From contig JBBSHJ010000003.1 of the NCBI GenBank assembly GCA_038253135.1, forward strand, positions 5,323-69,322: a stretch of DNA of 64,000 bases. The letters run 5' to 3'. The stretch is from Mycobacteriales bacterium (GTDB lineage Bacteria; Actinomycetota; Actinomycetes; Mycobacteriales; QHCD01). The translations under genes and the position numbers were made by a program. Numbering within the stretch: the first letter of the stretch is position 1; each line of letters starts with the position of its first letter. Below the pieces are notes generated by a model. That model was not told where the DNA came from, did not search any database, and worked only from the letters and a program-made list of their open reading frames with translations. Positions 3,891 to 64,000 of this stretch are shown one piece after another.

Positions 3891-5623
3891 GCCGCTCCTC
3901 CGTCCGCGTGCCCGATCACGTCGCTTGCCGCGCGCAGTGCGGCGGCGAGCGACACGGCTCCAGGATCCTGCGTTCCGACGCTGCGCTCCGCCAGCCAGGA
4001 CGCGCGCCCGCGCGCCGCCCGCAGCGCGGCGGTTGCCCGCGCGGCGTCGTCGGCGACGTCGCACGCGCGCGCCCATGCGGCCGCCGTGTCGGCACCCTGC
4101 GCCACCGCGTCGGCGTACGCCGTCGTGAACGGCGCCAGGACGTCGACCAGCGTCTTGTCCCCGGGCTCGCTGCCGCCGAGGCGCATGACGGCGTCGAGCA
4201 CGTCGGCGAAGGCCCGGCCCATCGTGGCGGCGTCCGGGCAGGCCGGGGCGCTGCCGATGCTCGAGGCGACGGTGGTCAGGCCGCTGCCCCACAGGGCGCC
4301 GGACGCGCCGCCGGCGGCGTCGGCGAACGCCATGCCCGCGGCGGTGAGTACGGCGGCGGCGTCGGGACCGGCCCGGCCGGCGGCGGCGACCGCCGCGTCG
4401 ATGCCACGGGTCATCGTGGTCCCGTGGTCGCCGTCGGCGGCGACGGCGTCGAGGTCGCCGAGACGGGATTCGAGCTCGTGCATCCGGGCGCCGATCGCGG
4501 TGAGCACCGCCTGGGCGGCCCGCCCGCTCGGCTCGAGCTCGGCCGACGTCCCGGCGGAGCCGGATCGCGCTCGCAGCTCGTCCACCGTGATGCCGAGCTC
4601 GGCCGGATCCGCGTCCAGGCCGGTGACCGCACCCGGCCGGGTGTAGCCCGGCGCGGCGGCGGGTGCGGACAGCAGCGTCTCGAGCTCGTCGTCAGTCCAG
4701 ACCAGGGTGACGGACACACCGGCCATATCCATCGACGTGACGAACTCGCCCACCTCCGGCTCGGTGAGCCCAACGCCGGCCGCGTCGAGGTTCGCGGCGA
4801 CGGCACGGAAGAGGATCAGCATCTCCTCGCACTTCACCCGGCCGAGGCCGTTAATGAGAATCCGGGCGCGAGTCGCGCCGGCCGGTCGCTCGGCGAGCAG
4901 CCGCCCGACCAGCAGGGAGCCGAGATCGGCGGCCGAGGCGAGCGGCATGGTCTCGATGCCCGACTCGCCGTGGATGCCCAGCCCGAGCTCCATCGTGCCG
5001 GGGTCGACGGTGAAGAGCGGCGCGTCCCGGCCGGGGACGGTGCAGCCGTCGAAGGCGACCCCGATCGTGCGCGTCACCTCGTTGGCGGCGCGGGCGATGC
5101 GCTCCACGTCGTCCAGCAAGTCGCCGCGGTGCGCGGCCGCCGCGGCGGCACGGAAGATGAAGAAATTGCCGGCGATGCCGCGCCGGTGGCTCGCATCGGG
5201 TGCCGACGCGATGTCGTCGGTCACCACCACGATCCGGGCGTCGATGCCGTCCCGGTCCCGGGCCTGGTCGGCCGCGAGACCGAAATGCATGACGTCCCCC
5301 TGGTAGTTGCCGAAGAGCATCAGCACCCCCGCGCCGCCGTCGACCGCCCGGATCGTGCGATAGACCTGTTCCGCCGACGGGCTGGTGAAGACGTCCCCGC
5401 ACGCCGCGGCATCGGCGAGTCCCGGACCGACGAGGCCGGCGAAGGACGGGTAATGGCCGGAGCCGCCACCGACGATCGTGGACACGCGACCGCGCTGCGG
5501 TGCCGACACCGACGCGACGGCCGAGGTCATCGGGATGCGGCGCAGATAGCGCGAGTACGCCGCGGCGAGGCCGTCGATCATCTCGTCCTTGAAAAGGCGT
5601 TCGGAGTTGAAGACGTAGGTCAT
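3887..5623 (-). CDS. two-domain dihydroxyacetone-kinase family sugar kinase (DhaK plus DhaL fused)
   Basis: Within track ORF 3887..5896; start MTYVFNSERLFKDEM at 5623, in frame with the track. Dak1 motif GGGSGHYP and Dak2 motif DAVAADGDHGTTM. The start overlaps the stop of the upstream ATPase gene. Confidence 0.85.
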   Translation of the reverse strand: MTYVFNSERLFKDEMIDGLAAAYSRYLRRIPMTSAVASVSAPQRGRVSTIVGGGSGHYPSFAGLVGPGLADAAACGDVFTSPSAEQVYRTIRAVDGGAGVLMLFGNYQGDVMHFGLAADQARDRDGIDARIVVVTDDIASAPDASHRRGIAGNFFIFRAAAAAAHRGDLLDDVERIARAANEVTRTIGVAFDGCTVPGRDAPLFTVDPGTMELGLGIHGESGIETMPLASAADLGSLLVGRLLAERPAGATRARILINGLGRVKCEEMLILFRAVAANLDAAGVGLTEPEVGEFVTSMDMAGVSVTLVWTDDELETLLSAPAAAPGYTRPGAVTGLDADPAELGITVDELRARSGSAGTSAELEPSGRAAQAVLTAIGARMHELESRLGDLDAVAADGDHGTTMTRGIDAAVAAAGRAGPDAAAVLTAAGMAFADAAGGASGALWGSGLTTVASSIGSAPACPDAATMGRAFADVLDAVMRLGGSEPGDKTLVDVLAPFTTAYADAVAQGADTAAAWARACDVADDAARATAALRAARGRASWLAERSVGTQDPGAVSLAAALRAASDVIGHADGGAA

Positions 5624-6735
5624 CGCAGGCGGACTCCCGTTTCCACGTCGAAGAGGTAGACGCGGTCCGGCGGAACATCGAATCGCACGGTCTCGCCGCT
5701 TTCCCACGTGACGTCGCCATCGACCTGGACGACGACGGAGCTGTCCGCGCCCGGAACCGTCAGCGTGCCGATCCCGTATTCCAGCAGGTTCTCGAAGATG
5801 GACACCGTTGCCTCGACGCCTCCGTCGGCTACGGCGTGCGCGTCCTGGGGTCGGATCCCTACCGTCACCGGCTGCCCGTCGGCAACGGCCGTGCACGTCG
5901 TACGCAGCGTGCCGTGGCGGCCCAGCCGCACGCTGACCGCGCCGCCTGGGCCCGGTGCATCTGGGCCCGGGGTGTCGGCCGGCGCGGCGATGCCCTCGAC
6001 AACATTGATCTTGGGCTCGCCGACGAAATCGGCCACGAAGAGGTTGGCGGGATCGTCGAAGATCTCGTCCGACGTCCCGAACTGCTGGATGACACCGCCG
6101 TCCATGACCGCCAGCCGGTCGGCGAGGCTCAGCGCTTCGAGCTGGTCGTGGGTCACGACGATGGTGGTGTAGCCGAATTCCCGCTGCAGCAACTTGAGCT
6201 CACGACGTACCCGCTGGCGATGCGACAGGTCGAGATGCGAGAGCGGCTCATCCAGCAGCAGCACCGGCGGATTGCGCACCAGCGCGCGTGCCAGCGCGAC
6301 CCGTTGCTTCTGCCCGGTCGAGAGCCCGGTCGGGCGGAGCTGGAGCAGCTCGCGCATCTCCAGCCGGTCGGCGATGCGCTCGACACGGGCGTCGGCGTCA
6401 CCGACCTTCCGGGCCTTCAGGCCGTAGGCGAGGTTCTCGCGCACCGTCAGCGGCGGGTAGAGGGCATAGCTCTCGAATCCCACCCCGACGTTGCGTTTGC
6501 CCGGTGGCAGTTGGGAAATTTCGCGGTCGCCGATGCGGATCCTGCCGTCCGTCACGGTTTCGAGGCCCGCGATCATCCGCAGGGTGGTCGTCTTGCCGCA
6601 GCCGGAGGGTCCGAGCAGCGCGACGAGCTCGCCGGGTCGGATGTCCAGGTCGATGCCCTTGACCGCTTCGAAGGGCTCCCGGCCGCGGGCGATGTAGGTC
6701 TTGCGGAGCCGTTCGAGGACCAGGCTCTCGGCCAT
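5620..6735 (-). CDS. ABC transporter ATP-binding protein, MalK/UgpC type (copy 2)
   Basis: 371-aa track ORF. Walker A GPSGCGKTT, signature LSTGQKQRVALARAL, Walker B LLLDEPLSHLD, and a C-terminal MalK-like regulatory domain. Confidence 0.9.
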   Translation of the reverse strand: MAESLVLERLRKTYIARGREPFEAVKGIDLDIRPGELVALLGPSGCGKTTTLRMIAGLETVTDGRIRIGDREISQLPPGKRNVGVGFESYALYPPLTVRENLAYGLKARKVGDADARVERIADRLEMRELLQLRPTGLSTGQKQRVALARALVRNPPVLLLDEPLSHLDLSHRQRVRRELKLLQREFGYTTIVVTHDQLEALSLADRLAVMDGGVIQQFGTSDEIFDDPANLFVADFVGEPKINVVEGIAAPADTPGPDAPGPGGAVSVRLGRHGTLRTTCTAVADGQPVTVGIRPQDAHAVADGGVEATVSIFENLLEYGIGTLTVPGADSSVVVQVDGDVTWESGETVRFDVPPDRVYLFDVETGVRLR

Positions 6736-56832: not shown

Positions 56833-56899
56833 CATCTCATCTGCGGTGCATCTCCGTGGGTATCTCCGTGGGTATCTCCCTGGGGCATCTCCTTGGGAG
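56833..56899 (+). repeat. imperfect tandem array of a 12-13-nt unit (ATCTCCnTGGGn), 4-5 copies
   Basis: CATCTCATCTGCGGTG CATCTCCGTGGGT ATCTCCGTGGGT ATCTCCCTGGGGC ATCTCCTTGGGAG. It lies in the 141-nt gap between the yceI stop and the helD-like start. The last unit forms the palindrome TCTCC-ttg-GGAGA. Confidence 0.8.
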
Positions 56900-56936
56900 A
56901 CGAGCCGTGAGGCCGCGGACCCGGCAGAATGGTCTG

Positions 56937-59135
56937 ATGCCCGAAATCGAGCCGAGCGCTCCGCCCGCCCCGGACGGAGCGCTGGCCGCTGAACTGGAGG
57001 TCGAGCAGCGCTACATCGACGCCGTGTACGAACGGGTCGACGAGCTCCGCACCGAAGCGGCCGCCCTGGCGGTGGAGGGTCACGGCCGAGCGACGCTGGG
57101 CAAGCACATCTACTCGGCCCTGTTCGAGCGTGACGCGCTGGTCTTCCAGGCCGCGCGACGGGCCCACGAACTCGACGCCGCGCACGAGGGCCTGATCTTC
57201 GGGCGGCTCGATCTCGACACCGGCGACACGCGCTACATCGGACGGCTGGGTCTGCGGGACGCCGACTTCGAGCCGATCGCCCTCGACTGGCGGGCACCGG
57301 CGGCGGCCCCGTTCTACCGCGCGACCGCCCGCGACCGACACGGCGTGATCCGGCGGCGCGTGATCGATTGCCGGCGCGAGCGGGTGGTCGGCATCGATGA
57401 CGACCTCCTCGCCCCCGAGAAGGCACCCCAAGGCATGCGGGTCATCGGCGATGGCGCGCTGATGGCAGCGCTCAGTCGCGCTCGCACCGGCAGCATGCGG
57501 GACATCGTTGCCACGATCCAGGCCGAGCAGGACGAGATCATCCGAGCCTCGCCGGACGGCGCGACCCTCATCACGGGTGGCCCCGGCACCGGCAAGACGG
57601 CGGTCGCGCTGCACCGCGCGGCGTACCTCCTCTATGCGGACCGCCGCCGGTTCGAGCGGGGCGGCGTGCTGATCGTCGGGCCGTCGTCGGCCTTCATGCA
57701 GTACATCGAGCGGGTGCTGCCCTCGCTCGGCGAGTCCACGGCGACGCTGCGCTCGACCGGAAGCCTGATCGACGGGCTGCGGGCCGATCGCTTCGATGAG
57801 GGCCGGCTTGCCATGATCAAGGGATCGCTCGCCATGCGGGCGGTGCTGCGGCGGGCGGCGGCCATCATGCCGGTCGGGGTGCCGGACCGATTGCGCGTCG
57901 TCTACCGCGGGTCCGTGCTCACCCTGGACGCCGCGGCGTTGGAGGCCGTACGGCGCTCGGTGCTCTCGCACGACCGCCGGCTCAACGTCGCCCGTAACTC
58001 GGCCGAGCGGGCGCTGGCCGGCGATCTGTGGCGGGGCTACGCGGCCAACGGCTTCGACACCGCCGCCGAGGAGTCCGATTTTGCCGCCGAGCTGGCCGAC
58101 CGAGGCGATCTCGCCGACTTCGTCACCGAGTGGTGGCCGGCCGTCGACGCGGTCATGGTGCTGGCCGGGCTCGCCGACCCCGAGCGGCTGGCTCGGTGCG
58201 CCGGCCGCGAGCTTCGGGGCGAGGACATTCCCGCCCTGGCCGACTCGTTCAAGACGCTGGCAGCCGGAGGGTCGCCGACGGTCGCCGACGTCGCGCTCAT
58301 CGACGAGCTCACTCCCATGCTGGGCCGGCCGGCGGAAACGAGAACAGCTGATCCGAGGACCGACGCCGACGCGGATTGGGAGGCGCTGGCCGAGTCCGAC
58401 GCCGCCTTCGGCCCGGCGACCCCGACGGGAGGCAGGCTGCTGTTCCCCGAGATCGACGATGAGCAGTACGCCCACATCGTCGTGGACGAGGCCCAGGACG
58501 TCTCGCCGATGCAGTGGCGCGCCCTCGGGCGCCGGGGCCGGCGGGCCAGCTGGACCGTCGTCGGTGACCCGCTGCAATCGTCGTGGGCTGACACCGGCGA
58601 GGCCGAAACGGCCATGTCCGGCGCCCTGCGCCGATCCGAGCGACGGGGCTACCGGCTCGACGTGAACTACCGGAACCCCGAGGAGATCTTCGCCCTCGCC
58701 GCGCAGGTGATCCGGATCCGTCAGCCCGACGTCGCGCTGCCCCGCGCGGTCCGCTCGACCGGCGCCGAGCCGGTCCAGGTGCACACCGCCACCGACGTAC
58801 TCGACCGGGACGTCGCCGCGGCCGTCGCCGTGGTGAGCGCCGACGTCGAGGGCGACGTCGGCGTCATCGTGCCGGCCTCCCTGTACGACGCGGCCAGGCG
58901 CTGGCTGCAGCCACGCCGCGGTGGGCGGGTCCGCGTCGTCGAGGCGGTCGAGGCGAAGGGCCTTGAATTCGACGGCGTGGTCGTGGTCGAGCCGGCGGCG
59001 ATCGGGTCACAGGTCGGCATGGGCGATCACCTTCTCTATGTGGCCCTGACCCGCGCGACGCAGCGCCTGACGGTCGTGAGCACCGACCCGGCCTGGCTGG
59101 ACCGGCTCGCGGGCGTCGCCATGCTCGCCGATTAG
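56937..59135 (+). CDS. HelD-like UvrD-family ATPase (RNA-polymerase-associated helicase-like protein)
   Basis: Track ORF 56856..59135; start MPEIEPSAPP (GTG 56907 is an alternative). N-terminal coiled segment LEVEQRYIDAVYERVDELR, Walker A GGPGTGKTAVALHRAAYL, VVDEAQDVSP, and C-terminal KGLEFDGVVVVEP...LYVALTRATQRL. Confidence 0.8.
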   Translation: MPEIEPSAPPAPDGALAAELEVEQRYIDAVYERVDELRTEAAALAVEGHGRATLGKHIYSALFERDALVFQAARRAHELDAAHEGLIFGRLDLDTGDTRYIGRLGLRDADFEPIALDWRAPAAAPFYRATARDRHGVIRRRVIDCRRERVVGIDDDLLAPEKAPQGMRVIGDGALMAALSRARTGSMRDIVATIQAEQDEIIRASPDGATLITGGPGTGKTAVALHRAAYLLYADRRRFERGGVLIVGPSSAFMQYIERVLPSLGESTATLRSTGSLIDGLRADRFDEGRLAMIKGSLAMRAVLRRAAAIMPVGVPDRLRVVYRGSVLTLDAAALEAVRRSVLSHDRRLNVARNSAERALAGDLWRGYAANGFDTAAEESDFAAELADRGDLADFVTEWWPAVDAVMVLAGLADPERLARCAGRELRGEDIPALADSFKTLAAGGSPTVADVALIDELTPMLGRPAETRTADPRTDADADWEALAESDAAFGPATPTGGRLLFPEIDDEQYAHIVVDEAQDVSPMQWRALGRRGRRASWTVVGDPLQSSWADTGEAETAMSGALRRSERRGYRLDVNYRNPEEIFALAAQVIRIRQPDVALPRAVRSTGAEPVQVHTATDVLDRDVAAAVAVVSADVEGDVGVIVPASLYDAARRWLQPRRGGRVRVVEAVEAKGLEFDGVVVVEPAAIGSQVGMGDHLLYVALTRATQRLTVVSTDPAWLDRLAGVAMLAD

Positions 59136-59145
59136 AGTCGCCACC

Positions 59146-59685
59146 ATGTCCGACGCCGCACCGCCGCCCGCGGGCCGCGCCCCGACCGTTCGGTCGGTTG
59201 CCGACGACCTGTACGACGCCTTCCTGGCGGCGATCCGCGGCCGGGCCCGCTTCGGTCGGGTAGATCGCCTCGACGACCGGACCGTGCGGGTGTTCGAGGA
59301 CGTCGCTACCGCCGGTCAGTCGGCCCGCCCTAGCGCCCGCTCCGTGCCGCGCGGCGCGCCCATGACGGTCCGCGTCCTCACGCCGGACCGCCTGCGGATC
59401 GAGATCGGCGAGCTGGGCACGGCCAGCATCGGCTGCGCGGGCGCGACCGTGGCAGAGCGGTCCGCAGCGACGGCGATCGAGGCTGTGGAGTGGCTCGACG
59501 CGGTACTCGACGGGCGGGTGCGTGAGACCTTCGTCGTCCTCGACGGCACCAGGAGCGAGTCCCGGCTGGTGATCACGTGGCGGGACGGGACGCGGACCCG
59601 GATCGCGACCCCCGGCATCGCTCGGGCCGAAGCCGAGACACACCAGCGCCTGCATGCGCGTTTTCCCCGCTATGCCGGCAGCTGA
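59146..59685 (+). CDS. hypothetical protein (179 aa) directly following helD-like
   Basis: 179-aa track ORF. It has high GC3 in frame and starts 10 nt after the helD-like stop. I recognise no motif. Confidence 0.5.
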   Translation: MSDAAPPPAGRAPTVRSVADDLYDAFLAAIRGRARFGRVDRLDDRTVRVFEDVATAGQSARPSARSVPRGAPMTVRVLTPDRLRIEIGELGTASIGCAGATVAERSAATAIEAVEWLDAVLDGRVRETFVVLDGTRSESRLVITWRDGTRTRIATPGIARAEAETHQRLHARFPRYAGS

Positions 59686-59948
59686 CGGCGGCCCGGATCC
59701 GGCGGCCGTTCGCGCGCCGTCGGGGCATCTCAATCGCCACAAATCGGGGCGGACATGTTCAGATGCCGCGGCCGCCGTTCTCCGGATAGAATGATCCCTA
59801 CGTGACCCCGAAGTGTGCGGTCACGCATGTGGCCGGGGGACCGAACAAACGCTGGGGGGACCAGCAGGTCCACTTGCACTATGGGCTGCCAAGCTGTTCA
59901 AAGTGCCGGTGCGGAGGAGTCTTGCTCGACCGCGCGGACGGAGACGAC

Positions 59949-60689
59949 ATGACAGAGCTAGCGCTGCCGCCACTGACCGGATTTCGGGCCGGGTATTTCG
60001 CGACCGAGTCGGGATGCTATGTGATTGTGACAACGCCGGCGGCTCGTCCCGATCTGTGGTCCGAATACCTCCGCGGCGCTCTTCAGACATACCGGGGTTT
60101 CGGTGTGGAGCAGGCGTTGGATTACCCGGCCACGGCGACCGGCAGGAGCACGTCGATCTTTTTTGTGGCCCTCGACGAGCGCGGCGACGTGGTCGCCGGC
60201 TCTCGGGTGCAGGGACCGATGGAGCTCCCGGATGATGCGCACGTCACCACCGAGTGGTCCGAGGCAGAGGACCGGCGCCGGCTGCGCCACCGGCTCGCGG
60301 CGCGCATCCCGCAGGGCGTGATCGAGATGCGGGCGGGTTGGGTCGACAAGCGGTCACCCGCGAAGCACGCGCTCGGGTCGGTAATCGCCCGCTCGGTCAT
60401 CCATTCGCTGCATCTGCTCGACGTCCGGTACGCCGTCTGCTCGGCAGCGACCCACGCGCTGTCCCGATGGACCACGACGGGAGGTCACATCGACGAGACG
60501 GTTGAGCCGGCGGCCTACCCGGACGATCGCTACTTGAGCTCGCTGATGTGGTGGGACTCGACCACCTTCGCCGACCGGGCATCGGCCGACCAGCTCTCGT
60601 CGCTGCTCGATGAAAGGGCGCAGCTGGAAGGGGCCGACTCCCACGCCGGACTCGGTGTCCGCTCCCGAGCCCTGGGTGCAGCCGCCTGA
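59949..60689 (+). CDS. hypothetical protein, 246 aa (position equivalent to M. tuberculosis Rv1356c)
   Basis: Track ORF 59802..60689; I prefer ATG 59949 (MTELALPPLTGFRAGYF). The stop overlaps the next start (TGATG). GC3 is lower than in neighbouring genes. I see only a vague GNAT/autoinducer-synthase-like pattern (FFVALDERGDVVAGSRVQGP...IEMRAGWV), which is not a firm assignment. Confidence 0.6.
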   Translation: MTELALPPLTGFRAGYFATESGCYVIVTTPAARPDLWSEYLRGALQTYRGFGVEQALDYPATATGRSTSIFFVALDERGDVVAGSRVQGPMELPDDAHVTTEWSEAEDRRRLRHRLAARIPQGVIEMRAGWVDKRSPAKHALGSVIARSVIHSLHLLDVRYAVCSAATHALSRWTTTGGHIDETVEPAAYPDDRYLSSLMWWDSTTFADRASADQLSSLLDERAQLEGADSHAGLGVRSRALGAAA

Positions 60690-62827
60690 TGGAGGCCGCT
60701 CCGGCGGCGTACGGCGTCGAGATCCTCGATCCGGCCGAGCCCGCCGATCTCGCTCGCATCACCGAGCTGCGCACCGCGCCGACCCTCGAGGTCGTCGACC
60801 ACGCCGCCGACCAGCGCCGCGAGTTGGAGACGGTCCGACCCGCACCGAGCGCCGAGTTGCTGAACGAGCCGATGCGCTGGGTCCACTACCCCTGGCGGCG
60901 GGCCCTCGTGTCTGTGGTGGGTCCGAGGTCCTATCGGACATTGCGTCTGGACCGCAACCGGAACAAGATCACAGGCGCTGAGCAGCAGCGCTTTTCGGAG
61001 ATGACGATCGGCGTCGTTGGCCTGAGTGTGGGGCATGCGATTGCCCACACCATCGCGCTCGAGGGCTTGTGCGGTGCCCTGCGTCTCGCCGACTTCGACT
61101 GTGTCGAGCTGTCGAATTTGAACCGAATTCCGGGAACAGTTTTCGACCTCGAGGTGAACAAGGCGACCGTTGCCGCCCGCCGAATTGCGGAGCTGGATCC
61201 CTATCTCTCCGTAACCGTTTTCCCGGCCGGAGTGACTGAGGATGACGTCGACCAATTCCTCTTCGGTTTGGATATCGTGATCGAGGAATGTGACTCGCTG
61301 GACGTCAAAGTCCTCGTGCGTGACAGGGCGCGCGGATTGCGCATTCCGGTGATGATGGAGACGAGCGATCGCGGCCTAATCGACGTCGAGCGGTTCGATC
61401 TCGAGCCGGACCGCCCGCTGTTTCACGGGCTCGCGGGCGACCTCGACCACGCCACACTGCGGGGCCTGACCAACCAGCAGAAGGTGCCGCACGTGCTGCG
61501 GATCGTCGACGCAGCCGGACTCTCGCCCCGGATGGCCGCGTCGATGGTCGAGATCGACGAGACGCTCACCACGTGGCCGCAGCTCGGTAGCGACGTCGCC
61601 CTCGGTGGCGCGACCGTCGCCACCATCGTGCGCCGAATCGGTCGCGGCGAGCCGATGCCGTCCGGCCGGCTGCATGTCGATCTGGACGCGCGGCTCGACG
61701 ACCTGGTTCAGCCGCCGCTGCGGCAGGGGACGCACGCCGAGGACGGCGAGGAGCTCCACCACGCGCCGGCCGAACCACACGCGGCCGTCGTACACGCCGC
61801 TCGGCTCGCGCCGTCGGGCGGCAATGTGCAGCCGTGGTGGTTCGAGGACGATCCGGACGAGTTCCGGATCGCGCTCGCTGCCGACCGCACCTCCGCCATG
61901 GATGTGGCCTTTCGCGGCAGCTACGTGGCCATCGGTGCAGCGCTGCTCAATGCCCGCGTCGCGGCCGCGCGGCACGGGGTGCTCGGTCCGGCCGCGATTC
62001 CCGCGCACGATCACGGATACGTGGCGACGATGCGGTACGCCACCGGGTCCGACGACGATCTCGCCGGCCTGTACGACGCCATGCTGGCCCGCTCGGCCAA
62101 CCGGCGGCCCGGGGACGGGCGCCCGCTCGACCGTTCGGTCGAGCCGGCGCTGCGCGCCGCGGCCGAGGCCGAGACCGGCCGGCTGCATCTGATCACCGAT
62201 CGAGCGGTCATCGAGCAATGCGCGGAGCTGCTGGGCCGCAGCGACCGCATCCGCTTCCTCACCCCGCTGCTGCACGGCCAGATGATGAGCGAGCTCAGGG
62301 TCCCCGGCGTCGACTCGCTCTCCACCGGCCTCGACGTCAGGACGATGGAGCTTGATGAGGCCGACCTCGCCAAGCTCGAGATCGCTCGCCGCGCCGACGC
62401 GATGGCGCGCCTGGCCGAATGGAATGCCGGCAGCGCACTCGGCTACCCGACCCGCGACCGGGTGCGGTCGAGCTCGGCGCTCGCCGTGGTGACCGTTGCC
62501 GGCGCGTCGCCCGCCGATTTCGTCCGGGGCGGGAGCGCGGTCGAACGGCTGTGGATCACGGCCGAGACGCTCGGCCTGGCCGTGCAGCCGGTGTCCCCCG
62601 TCTTCATCTTCGCGCTCGACCGGTCCGACGCTGCCCGGATGTCGGGCCAGTTCGTCGACGAGATGGAACAGCTCCGCAACACCTTCCGCAGCGCCGCCGG
62701 TCTGCCGGATGATGAATACATGGCCCTGGTTCTGCGGCTCGGCCACGCCCCGCCGCCCGGTTTCCGGAGCCGCCGGCTCCCGGCGGATCAGGTCGTGCGG
62801 TCCGGCTCGGCGGCTGGGCTGTCATGA
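60689..62827 (+). CDS. Rv1355c(MoeY)-family protein: ThiF/E1-like domain fused to an Acg-type tandem nitroreductase-like module
   Basis: 712-aa track ORF. E1-like Rossmann TIGVVGLSVGHAIAHTIALEG...LADFDCVELSNLNRIPG...VIEECDSLDVKV. C-terminal half AARLAPSGGNVQPWWFEDD...YVAIGAALLNARVAAARHG...VERLWITAETLGLAVQPVSP. Confidence 0.8.
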   Translation: MEAAPAAYGVEILDPAEPADLARITELRTAPTLEVVDHAADQRRELETVRPAPSAELLNEPMRWVHYPWRRALVSVVGPRSYRTLRLDRNRNKITGAEQQRFSEMTIGVVGLSVGHAIAHTIALEGLCGALRLADFDCVELSNLNRIPGTVFDLEVNKATVAARRIAELDPYLSVTVFPAGVTEDDVDQFLFGLDIVIEECDSLDVKVLVRDRARGLRIPVMMETSDRGLIDVERFDLEPDRPLFHGLAGDLDHATLRGLTNQQKVPHVLRIVDAAGLSPRMAASMVEIDETLTTWPQLGSDVALGGATVATIVRRIGRGEPMPSGRLHVDLDARLDDLVQPPLRQGTHAEDGEELHHAPAEPHAAVVHAARLAPSGGNVQPWWFEDDPDEFRIALAADRTSAMDVAFRGSYVAIGAALLNARVAAARHGVLGPAAIPAHDHGYVATMRYATGSDDDLAGLYDAMLARSANRRPGDGRPLDRSVEPALRAAAEAETGRLHLITDRAVIEQCAELLGRSDRIRFLTPLLHGQMMSELRVPGVDSLSTGLDVRTMELDEADLAKLEIARRADAMARLAEWNAGSALGYPTRDRVRSSSALAVVTVAGASPADFVRGGSAVERLWITAETLGLAVQPVSPVFIFALDRSDAARMSGQFVDEMEQLRNTFRSAAGLPDDEYMALVLRLGHAPPPGFRSRRLPADQVVRSGSAAGLS

Positions 62828-64000
62828 CCGCCGCCCAGCGACCACGCAATCTCGACGAGCTCGTCGTCGCGGTCGCATCCCTGCTCATGCCGGTGCAATC
62901 CGACCAGGTCACGGCGACCTATCAAGAGGTCCTGCACACCCTGGTCGATTTCCTGGGCGTCGACACCAGCTTCCTGCGACGTAACGACCACGAGCAAGGC
63001 GTCAGCATTCTGCTCGCGGAATGGCCCCCGCGCCGCGACGTGCCCGACCCCGACCCGCTCGGGGTCGTGCCGTTCGAGGGCAGTGACCCGATCTTCGCCG
63101 CCAGCAAAGACCTGCAGGAGCCGCTGATCGTGCGGCCCGGCGCGGCGATGGAGTACGAGGACCGCGTGCAGGAGGCCTCCGGCATCCCGGCCGCGACGGT
63201 GGTCGGGATCCCGCTCCTTGGTCCTGAGGGCACCATGGGTGCGCTCGGTCTGGTCAAGTTCGGCGACCGCGACTACAACACCCGGGAGATCAACGCCCTC
63301 ACGGCGATCGGATCGCTGATCGCGCAGGCGGGACGGCGTACGCAGGCGGAACAGCACGTGCGGTACGTCGCCTTCCACGACGATCTCACCGGGCTCGCCA
63401 ACCGGCGCGGGCTGACCGGACTGCTCGAGGAGCGGCTCGGTCCGGGCGCCGAGGCGCCGGTCACCGTCATGCACATCGACGTCGACCGCTTCAAGGCGGT
63501 CAACGAATTCATCAGCCAGGCCGCGGGCGATCAGTACCTGCGCGGGCTGGCCCGACGGTTCGAGATCGCGCTGCCGACCGGTGCGATCGCGGCCCGGCTC
63601 TCCGGTGACGAGTTCGTGGTCGTCTTCGCCGAACCGCTCGATGACGACGCCGCGTCCGAGCTGGCCACCTCGGTGCTGCTCCCGATCGGTTCCGCGATCC
63701 GGGCCGGCGGTCAGGAGGTCGGTCGCACGGTCAGCGTCGGCGTCGCCTCCGCCGTGCCGGGCGAGGCCGGGGCATCAGAGCTACTGAGCACGGCCGCGCA
63801 GGCGGCTCGGGCGGCCAAGGCGCAGGGTGGCGACGCGGTCCGCGTCTTCACGCGGGAGATGCGGGCCCAGGTCCGGGTCCGCAACGACATCGAGCTGGGG
63901 CTGGGTGCCGCGATCGAGAACGGCGATCTGCGGCTCCAGTTCCAGCCCGAAGTGGATCTGCGCGACGGCCGTCTCGTCGGCGCCGAGGCGCTGGTGCGCT
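62824..64000 (+). CDS. GAF-GGDEF(SGDEF)-EAL cyclic-di-GMP turnover protein, 5' part (runs off window end)
   Basis: Not in the track (no stop in the window). ATG 62824 overlaps the previous stop (ATGA). Own translation: MTAAQRPRNLDELVVAV... with a GAF-like segment (MGALGLVKFGDRDYNTREINALTAIGSLIAQ). GGDEF domain FHDDLTGLANRRGL...HIDVDRFKAVNE...ARLSGDEFVVVF. EAL start LRLQFQPEVDLRDGRLVGAEALVR. Confidence 0.85.
   Translation, partial: MTAAQRPRNLDELVVAVASLLMPVQSDQVTATYQEVLHTLVDFLGVDTSFLRRNDHEQGVSILLAEWPPRRDVPDPDPLGVVPFEGSDPIFAASKDLQEPLIVRPGAAMEYEDRVQEASGIPAATVVGIPLLGPEGTMGALGLVKFGDRDYNTREINALTAIGSLIAQAGRRTQAEQHVRYVAFHDDLTGLANRRGLTGLLEERLGPGAEAPVTVMHIDVDRFKAVNEFISQAAGDQYLRGLARRFEIALPTGAIAARLSGDEFVVVFAEPLDDDAASELATSVLLPIGSAIRAGGQEVGRTVSVGVASAVPGEAGASELLSTAAQAARAAKAQGGDAVRVFTREMRAQVRVRNDIELGLGAAIENGDLRLQFQPEVDLRDGRLVGAEALVR

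Follow-up and report, generated by a model that had tools for sequence, protein, structure and literature searches.

A trzA-trzS-dcpA gene trio in an uncultured Mycobacteriales bacterium: a probable N-acyl oxazolone pathway translationally coupled to a c-di-GMP enzyme

The closest described relatives of the locus reported here are the tryptazolone pathways of mycobacteria and rhodococci. In these, Rv1356c, now TrzA, is an acyl-CoA:L-tryptophan N-acyltransferase that takes short acyl-CoAs, and Rv1355c, the old 'MoeY' and now TrzS, is a ThiF-like ATP-dependent cyclase fused to a flavin mononucleotide (FMN) oxidase (FDO); N-acyl-tryptophan is cyclised with ATP and then desaturated with O2, giving an N-acyl tryptazolone (Kleetz et al., J Biol Chem, December 2025, PMC12856293). 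The TrzA/TrzS pairs of Mycobacterium tuberculosis, Mycobacterium smegmatis and Rhodococcus jostii RHA1 are active in vivo, tryptazolones themselves were not detected in M. tuberculosis, and a ThiF-FDO fusion immediately preceded by trzA marks a Trp-specific subcluster (PMC12856293). We analysed the window, a stretch of 64,000 nucleotides from a metagenome-assembled genome (MAG) of an uncultured member of Mycobacteriales; gene coordinates refer to this whole stretch, and labels such as L001 and P0001 stand for loci and proteins. Near its end lie three genes that very probably form a translationally coupled trzA-trzS-dcpA operon, encoding the synthesis of an N-acyl oxazolone, most likely a tryptazolone, together with an enzyme of cyclic di-GMP (c-di-GMP) metabolism.

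Two further pathways follow the same chemistry, namely the tyrazolone pathways OxzAB of Pseudoalteromonas rubra and TyzACB of M. tuberculosis (Rv2336-2338c) (PMC10404671, PMC12596934). Common to OxzAB, TyzACB and TrzAS are an N-acyltransferase, a ThiF-like ATP-dependent oxazolone cyclase and then an FDO desaturase; OxzB is a fusion like TrzS, whereas TyzB and TyzC are separate proteins. OxzAB and TyzACB differ in that they use Tyr or Phe, belong to another subcluster of the sequence similarity network and have no reported linkage to a c-di-GMP gene. The function of TrzA and TrzS was itself predicted in 2023 (PMC10404671), and that prediction builds on OxzAB (reviewed in PMC12596934).

The window locus shares with the systems of M. 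tuberculosis, M. smegmatis and R. jostii RHA1 the two-gene order with its start/stop overlap, the ThiF-FDO fusion, the acyltransferase fold, the experimentally tested Asp, Arg and Gln, and a GAF-GGDEF-EAL gene downstream. Unlike them it comes from an uncultured MAG, and its proteins are about 36-39% (TrzA) and 51-52% (TrzS) identical to those of R. jostii and M. leprae. It also lacks the Rv1357c-like EAL gene upstream, in place of which stand a HelD-like gene and a 179-residue open reading frame (ORF). The layout is as follows:

59949..60689, forward strand: gene 1, trzA-like, 246 amino acids, ATG start
60687..60691, forward strand: TGATG stop/start overlap between trzA and trzS, read from the sequence
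60689..62827, forward strand: gene 2, trzS-like, 712 amino acids
62824..62827, forward strand: ATGA start/stop overlap between trzS and the GGDEF-EAL gene, read from the sequence
62824..64000, forward strand: gene 3, dcpA/Rv1354c-type, truncated by the window end

An earlier note on this DNA had placed three forward-strand genes and both overlaps at these positions and had compared their order with Rv1356c-Rv1355c-Rv1354c of M. tuberculosis; coordinates and synteny are both correct, and the domains it named are borne out by Pfam and NCBIfam profile searches. Gene 1 is preceded by a Shine-Dalgarno motif, GGAG at 59940-43, 5 nucleotides before the ATG at 59949; public gene calls give either 246 residues (L081) or 255 residues from TTG 59922 (L082, P0001), and a 295-residue ORF from GTG 59802 found no support as gene 1.

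The case for the biosynthetic pair is strongest for gene 2. Its product matches the NCBIfam equivalog NF005901, 'Rv1355c family protein', with 960.9 bits against a cut-off of 476 over residues 6-704, and is 100% identical to an NCBI entry titled 'MAG: Rv1355c family protein [Mycobacteriales bacterium]'; against the TrzS found at the syntenic position in R. jostii and M. leprae, identity is 51-52%. The domains and key residues of the gene 2 product are:

60950..61357, forward strand: ThiF/E1-like Rossmann domain, residues 88-223 (PF00899, E 4e-22)
61019-61036, forward strand: GLSVGH loop, residues 111-116, in the ThiF domain
61292-61294, forward strand: motif Asp D202, in the ThiF domain
61787..62797, forward strand: Acg-type double nitroreductase-like FMN oxidase domain, residues 367-703 (NF047509, E 5e-37, profile positions 2-319 of 319)
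62252-62254, forward strand: R522, in the FMN oxidase domain
62585-62587, forward strand: Q633, in the FMN oxidase domain

Of the M. smegmatis TrzS variants, D217A no longer carries out the cyclase step, R540A is severely impaired in the oxidase step and Q651A has a lower turnover (PMC12856293). The three mutated residues correspond to D202, R522 and Q633 of the window protein when the numbering is carried across the M. llatzerense orthologue (L021), whose motif Asp was set to 217 and which then has Arg at 540 (SDRIRFLT) and Gln at 651 (LAVQPIS), aligned to R522 and Q633. In TcdA and in ThiF, too, it is the motif Asp that lines up with D202. Both D202 and R522 are invariant in all 71 family members, and Q633 is kept in 52 of them.

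Among solved structures, the ThiF domain is closest to the tRNA t6A cyclodehydratase TcdA (TcdA/CsdL, PDB 4yed and 4d7a; E 7e-9, over about 137 residues only). TcdA activates a carboxylate with ATP and closes an oxazolone-type ring by cyclodehydration, which fits the cyclase chemistry of TrzS, and its motif Asp is aligned with that of TrzS; it differs from TrzS in its tRNA nucleoside substrate, in having no fused oxidase and in its canonical GxGGxG loop. It is true, as had been remarked before, that the GLSVGH loop departs from the canonical GxGxxG. In the family, however, its G, S and G are invariant (71/71) and its L, V and H nearly so (64-69 of 71); it aligns with the TcdA loop GIGGVGS with a one-residue deletion, and EECDS aligns with DAIDS. 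The loop is thus a hallmark of a family of ATP-dependent enzymes and gives no argument against nucleotide use.

Gene 1 has no Pfam or NCBIfam family, and a sequence search of its product against the PDB returned nothing significant. An AlphaFold model built with 13 homologues (pLDDT 87, pTM 0.84) was searched with Foldseek, where the top PDB matches were FeeM (2g0b, E 1e-7) and then the CoA-dependent acyl-homoserine lactone (AHL) synthases MesI, RpaI and BjaI. All four have the GNAT-like three-layer fold of the model (Foldseek probability 1.0) at TM-scores of 0.5-0.7 and sequence identities of 12-15%; FeeM uses acyl-acyl carrier protein, and the AHL synthases use S-adenosylmethionine as acceptor. 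By its modelled fold, the gene 1 product is an acyl-CoA:amino acid N-acyltransferase of the FeeM/AHL-synthase (GNAT-type) fold, and the same structural likeness has been reported for TyzA (PMC10404671). Compared with the ORF directly upstream of trzS, the window TrzA is 39% identical in R. jostii (L077) and 36% in M. leprae (L062); its identity to other family members is 33-45%.

Gene 3 is cut by the end of the window, and its full length of 617 amino acids was read from the near-identical contig L081 (4 mismatches in 5 kb). That contig, NCBI JBPCLQ010000026.1, differs from the window at 60889, 63106, 63513 and 63960 and is otherwise identical; one of the four is a K-to-E substitution in the GAF domain, and the MAG is represented by two near-identical assemblies or strains. 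The features of gene 3 within the window are:

62908-63330, forward strand: GAF domain (GAF_2, Pfam)
63370-63831, forward strand: GGDEF domain (Pfam)
63601-63615, forward strand: SGDEF motif, residues 260-264, a variant of GGDEF
63907 onward, forward strand: start of the EAL domain (Pfam)
63985-63993, forward strand: EAL motif, residue 388, intact

The EAL domain of the 617-residue protein is recognised as PF00563 (E 7e-67), GGDEF-EAL matches of gene 3 in the PDB reach E 3e-77, and over GAF and GGDEF the protein shows 43-48% identity with its syntenic counterparts from M. leprae, R. jostii and Nakamurella. By homology, then, gene 3 is an orthologue of Rv1354c/DcpA, the bifunctional mycobacterial c-di-GMP cyclase/phosphodiesterase. 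It shares with DcpA (MSMEG_2196)/Rv1354c the GAF-GGDEF-EAL architecture, the length of about 620 residues, the intact EAL motif and the position downstream of trzS; it differs in reading SGDEF instead of GGDEF and in having no RxxD I-site, which a motif census found absent. Among 81 orthologues the motif reads GGDEF in 62, AGDEF in 10 and SGDEF in 3, and the EAL motif is kept in 78. The GAF domain alignment has many invariant polar and aromatic residues; R45, E59, R63, D70, D81, Y104 and T130 (numbering of alignment A3) are invariant, and PDPDPLGVVPF and GVLGFIKFGD are motifs of this DcpA-type GAF. Its solved relatives are distant only, the nearest being the cAMP-binding GAF of Lcd1 (5w10, E 8e-6). 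The protein is about 617-623 residues long in the window, M. leprae and R. jostii. Longer forms of 744-790 residues occur in Jiangella, Phytoactinopolyspora, Pseudonocardiales, one Mycobacteriales MAG and Acidimicrobiia, their N-termini being extended by 130-200 residues that match nothing in Pfam (L001:12082-12540, L019:3162-3670, L012:12066-12670, L060:12191-12740 and L053).

Taking the enzymology established for the orthologues together with gene structure, family membership, fold and conserved catalytic residues, we infer the following course for the window pair. TrzA would N-acylate an aromatic amino acid, L-tryptophan in the characterised orthologues, using an acyl-CoA of short or medium chain length. 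In TrzS, the ThiF-like domain would then activate the carboxylate of the N-acyl amino acid with ATP, so that the amide oxygen closes the oxazolone ring, and the C-terminal Acg-type FMN oxidase would desaturate the C-alpha/C-beta bond with O2 to give the N-acyl tryptazolone. The third, translationally coupled gene would supply the bifunctional c-di-GMP cyclase/phosphodiesterase of the Rv1354c/DcpA type.

That the third gene belongs to the unit is indicated by two-way synteny. In the forward direction, genomes were scanned with a TrzS alignment, one genome per species; of 582 confirmed relatives the best 80 were kept with 10 kb on either side, so that these loci are the best matches, with many mycobacteria among them, and not a random or phylogenetically balanced sample; M. 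tuberculosis and M. smegmatis are not in the set. A GAF-GGDEF-EAL gene of the gene 3 type (at least 150 bits, covering GAF and GGDEF) lies within 10 kb in 74 of the 80 loci: directly downstream on the same strand in 48, divergently upstream in 7 and elsewhere within 10 kb in 19, with 6 loci lacking it. In all 48 directly downstream cases the reading frame opens at the trzS stop or no more than about 180 nucleotides away, and in ten (L001, L003, L005, L009, L010, L013, L019, L025, L036 and L058, from Jiangella, Haloactinopolyspora, Nakamurella, Pseudonocardiales, Rhodococcus and one Mycobacteriales MAG) a possible start overlaps the trzS stop by 4 nucleotides. The loci come from Mycobacterium, Mycolicibacterium, Rhodococcus, Jiangella, Phytoactinopolyspora, Nakamurella, Pseudonocardiales and Acidimicrobiia. 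An apparent trzS-GGDEF fusion in L067 was ruled out, as a TGA and a 30-nucleotide spacer separate the two.

The reverse direction used an alignment of the GAF domain only against metagenome contigs, a contig being assessable with at least 900 nucleotides upstream. Here trzS stood directly upstream on the same strand in 46 of 59 assessable contigs; 9 more short contigs had the 3' end of trzS at the contig edge, and 12 had none on the contig. The two-way linkage thus covers Mycobacteriales, Jiangellales, Nakamurellales, Pseudonocardiales and Acidimicrobiia, and a trio confined to close relatives, which the earlier note would have counted against its reading, is not what is seen: at least five orders of actinobacteria, and Acidimicrobiia, have it. 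By comparison, the flanking genes of the window (the HelD/HelR-like gene, the 179-residue ORF and a downstream MarR gene) were found in none of the 80 TrzS loci, so the conserved unit is exactly the trio. In M. leprae TN (L062, NC_002677.1) the trio ORFs are intact at 235, 721 and 623 residues despite heavy genome decay:

L062, 8915-9622: trzA
L062, 9914-12079: trzS
L062, 12097-13968: GAF-GGDEF-EAL gene

A gap of 291 nucleotides, with no overlap, separates trzA and trzS in this genome.

The link between trzA and trzS has support of its own. In R. jostii, the species of the studied strain RHA1, trzA likewise stands just before trzS with a start/stop overlap. A trzA gene stands directly upstream of trzS, or is fused to it, in 34 of the 80 loci; where the genes are separate, the junction is an overlap of -4 or -1 in 17 of 22, and in seven loci the two form one ORF (L008, L053, L060, L071, L073, L074 and L075; only single-ORF cases were counted, L004, L007, L018, L022 and L035 being separate genes). 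The fused ORFs, of about 950-1050 residues in Acidimicrobiia and one Pseudonocardiaceae MAG, read acyltransferase-ThiF-FDO, as in L060:9209-12112. Many other homologues are 930-1080 residues long; P0134 has a Pfam acetyltransferase domain and P0029 (1079 residues) an XRE-type helix-turn-helix. In 16 other mycobacterial loci trzA is inverted and lies 2-6.7 kb downstream.

Several points weigh against this interpretation of the locus. The trio is not universal: in about 24 of the 80 TrzS loci, tblastn and hidden Markov model (HMM) searches of the 10 kb on either side gave no TrzA homologue (L015, L017, L021, L024, L027, L031, L033, L037-L039, L042-L044, L047-L050, L054, L061, L063, L065, L072, L076 and L078). 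These are mostly Mycobacterium and Mycolicibacterium, most retain a GAF-GGDEF-EAL gene nearby, and HMM and BLAST searches found no divergent acyltransferase upstream of trzS in the 24. The mapping of the tested residues is indirect, passing through one Mycolicibacterium orthologue, and is not certain. TrzA is divergent, so its amino-acid and acyl-chain specificity could differ from that of the three tested pairs. The co-transcription we propose for the trio is deduced from the overlaps. Since SGDEF is a minority state, the predicted cyclase activity of gene 3 is uncertain. Finally, GDP binding has been reported for the DcpA GAF (Chen et al. 2018, as cited in PMC8846402), which already offers a ligand unrelated to an oxazolone pathway. 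As separate observations, the ORFs upstream of trzS in the trzA-less loci are mutually unrelated, resembling by eye dienelactone-hydrolase, TetR, P450 and methyltransferase proteins, and the metagenome contigs L119, L123, L146 and L152 carry a trzA-like gene immediately before the GAF-GGDEF-EAL gene and show no trzS (in L119, trzA-like at 5017-5634 and the GAF-GGDEF-EAL gene from 5995, with 6 kb on each side). Judging by such contigs, the c-di-GMP gene could track the acyl-amino-acid step and not the oxazolone step.

How the metabolite and the second messenger might be connected is a separate matter, and the synteny of the trio argues for a functional connection between them. We consider two possibilities in particular. 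First, in its simplest form, the GAF domain senses acyl-tryptophan or the tryptazolone; that the GAF of the DcpA/Rv1354c type is a dedicated receptor for N-acyl tryptazolone or N-acyl-tryptophan is a tentative proposal, which we hold to be possible and somewhat doubtful. If true, trzA-trzS-dcpA would be a self-contained module in which a small molecule is made and then read out as c-di-GMP, across Actinomycetota, and the main or only c-di-GMP enzyme of mycobacteria would receive an autoinducer-like or stress-metabolite input.

Second, and with about the same modest likelihood, the c-di-GMP gene may be a passenger, co-located and co-transcribed through regulatory economy or by accident of history, with no pathway metabolite acting on its product. 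The GDP ligand reported for the DcpA GAF in the citing source would suit this, as would the failure to detect tryptazolones in M. tuberculosis and the absence, from the literature searched, of any experiment linking the oxazolone and c-di-GMP systems. So would the loci themselves: the gene is not directly downstream in 26 of the 80 and is missing from 6, and it is retained in most of the trzA-less group. A passenger, on the other hand, is hard to reconcile with a linkage that can be seen from either gene and in more than one class, amid flanking genes that otherwise all vary, with start/stop overlaps that recur in several lineages, with an intact trio in M. leprae and with the many invariant polar and aromatic residues of the GAF domain. 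The literature has little to add on this choice. STRING links Rv1356c with Rv1354c and Rv1355c (PMC7960788), the adjacency of trzAS and the c-di-GMP gene receives one sentence, on M. tuberculosis only, in Kleetz et al. (PMC12856293), and no further papers connecting the oxazolone pathway and the c-di-GMP enzyme were found in the literature searched.

Less likely is that the same enzymes make another product, an N-acyl oxazolone from Tyr or Phe, as OxzAB and TyzACB do, or one with an unusual acyl chain. The divergence of TrzA, which is at most 49% identical to any relative bar the near-identical MAG copy and 39% identical to that of R. jostii, lends weight to a different amino acid or chain length, and among characterised systems the acyl-chain preference varies between species while related clusters use Tyr or Phe (PMC12856293, PMC12596934). 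TrzS points the other way: it scores as an Rv1355c family equivalog, stands at half identity or slightly above to the syntenic R. jostii and M. leprae copies, and its ThiF-FDO fusion with trzA directly upstream is the architecture of the Trp-specific subcluster.

The earlier note had read the locus as an undescribed signalling module, in which an uncharacterised E1-like protein, adenylating or redox/ligand-sensing, and an unknown small partner are wired to c-di-GMP, with MoeY lacking any demonstrated function. This is now very improbable. The non-canonical loop, a 246-residue protein of no Pfam or NCBIfam family and the adjoining c-di-GMP enzyme could each suggest it, but the orthologues of the first two genes are the biochemically characterised TrzA and TrzS (PMC12856293), so the module is not undescribed, and the statement on MoeY has been overtaken by the biochemistry of Rv1355c. 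Of the activities suggested for the E1-like protein, adenylation agrees with the use of ATP by the characterised orthologues; redox or ligand sensing does not agree, as these are biosynthetic cyclase-oxidases acting on a small molecule. The small partner is, by model and Foldseek, a FeeM-like acyl-CoA N-acyltransferase rather than a carrier or sensor partner, and the GLSVGH loop is the hallmark of an ATP-dependent family.

The note's observation that no GG-tailed carrier, YcaO or JAMM/JAB partner is present does agree with the Pfam list of all genes within 10 kb on either side, which contains no MoaD, ThiS, ubiquitin-like (Ubl), JAB or YcaO protein. Such a partner is not needed, because the substrate is a small-molecule carboxylate. 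The locus is likewise set apart from TOMM-type cyclodehydratases, there being no YcaO in this range and the orthologues' substrate being a free N-acyl amino acid, and from canonical E1/MoeB/ThiF carrier activation, given the missing carrier gene, the sub-cut-off model scores and the GNAT-like partner. Activation of a molybdopterin or thiamin sulfur carrier, as in the old 'moeY' label, can practically be set aside, since the MoeB/ThiF equivalog matches that recall it all fall far below their cut-offs (e.g. 50.8 against 266), no MoaD or ThiS gene lies nearby, and both the fused FMN oxidase and the published function speak for another role.

Upstream of the trio, two features of the leader had been offered as regulatory signals:

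59787..59792, forward strand: TAGAAT, a -10-like hexamer, 157 nucleotides upstream of the trzA ATG
59802..59824, forward strand: inverted repeat GTGACC-n11-GGTCAC in the leader (arms 59802-59807 and 59819-59824)

The letters are indeed there; their standing as signals did not hold up against shuffled sequence, folding and a promoter scan. TAGAAT is rare in this window of 70% GC (2 copies on the forward strand, against 92 TANNNT sites on both strands) and could be a candidate mycobacterial-style -10 element; a two-hexamer promoter scan gave no site and no -35 partner for it. Perfect 6-bp stems with loops of 3-15 nucleotides number 570 in the window, or about 9 per kb, and 442-489 in shuffled versions. 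The GTGACC/GGTCAC stem is present in the minimum free energy fold of the leader, and the 166-nucleotide leader (59795-59960) as a whole is no more stably folded than its shuffled versions (z = -0.55). The hairpin and TAGAAT are therefore no more than is expected by chance. An Rfam search of 59000-64000 at E <= 1 gave no match and no riboswitch, c-di-GMP classes included, and no internal terminator-like site was found on the forward strand of the trio. The sole terminator-like site of the region is on the reverse strand at 59866-59850, a 6-bp stem followed by TTTGTTCGGT; it falls inside the trzA leader, with no obvious reverse-strand gene for it to serve.

Beyond the trio, the HelD/HelR-like RNA-polymerase recycling ATPase upstream occupies 56856-59135 of the window and scores at best 422 bits against an NCBIfam cut-off of 1100; the 179-residue ORF, which has no family, follows at 59146-59685, 10 bases past it. 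Past the window end, a weak MarR-family regulator gene (L081:14094-14621) lies 104 nucleotides after the GAF-GGDEF-EAL gene on the same strand.

The biosynthetic part of this locus is settled as another orthologue of the pathway published in December 2025. What is new here is the breadth and tightness of the link between trzAS and a DcpA-type c-di-GMP enzyme, which had not been worked out in the literature searched. The two-way linkage, the recurrent overlaps and the survival of the trio in M. leprae extend the single remark on M. tuberculosis. They bear on the role of mycobacterial oxazolones, which Kleetz et al. call the major question (PMC12856293), and on which signal reaches the principal c-di-GMP enzyme of mycobacteria through its GAF domain, and both questions are directly testable.

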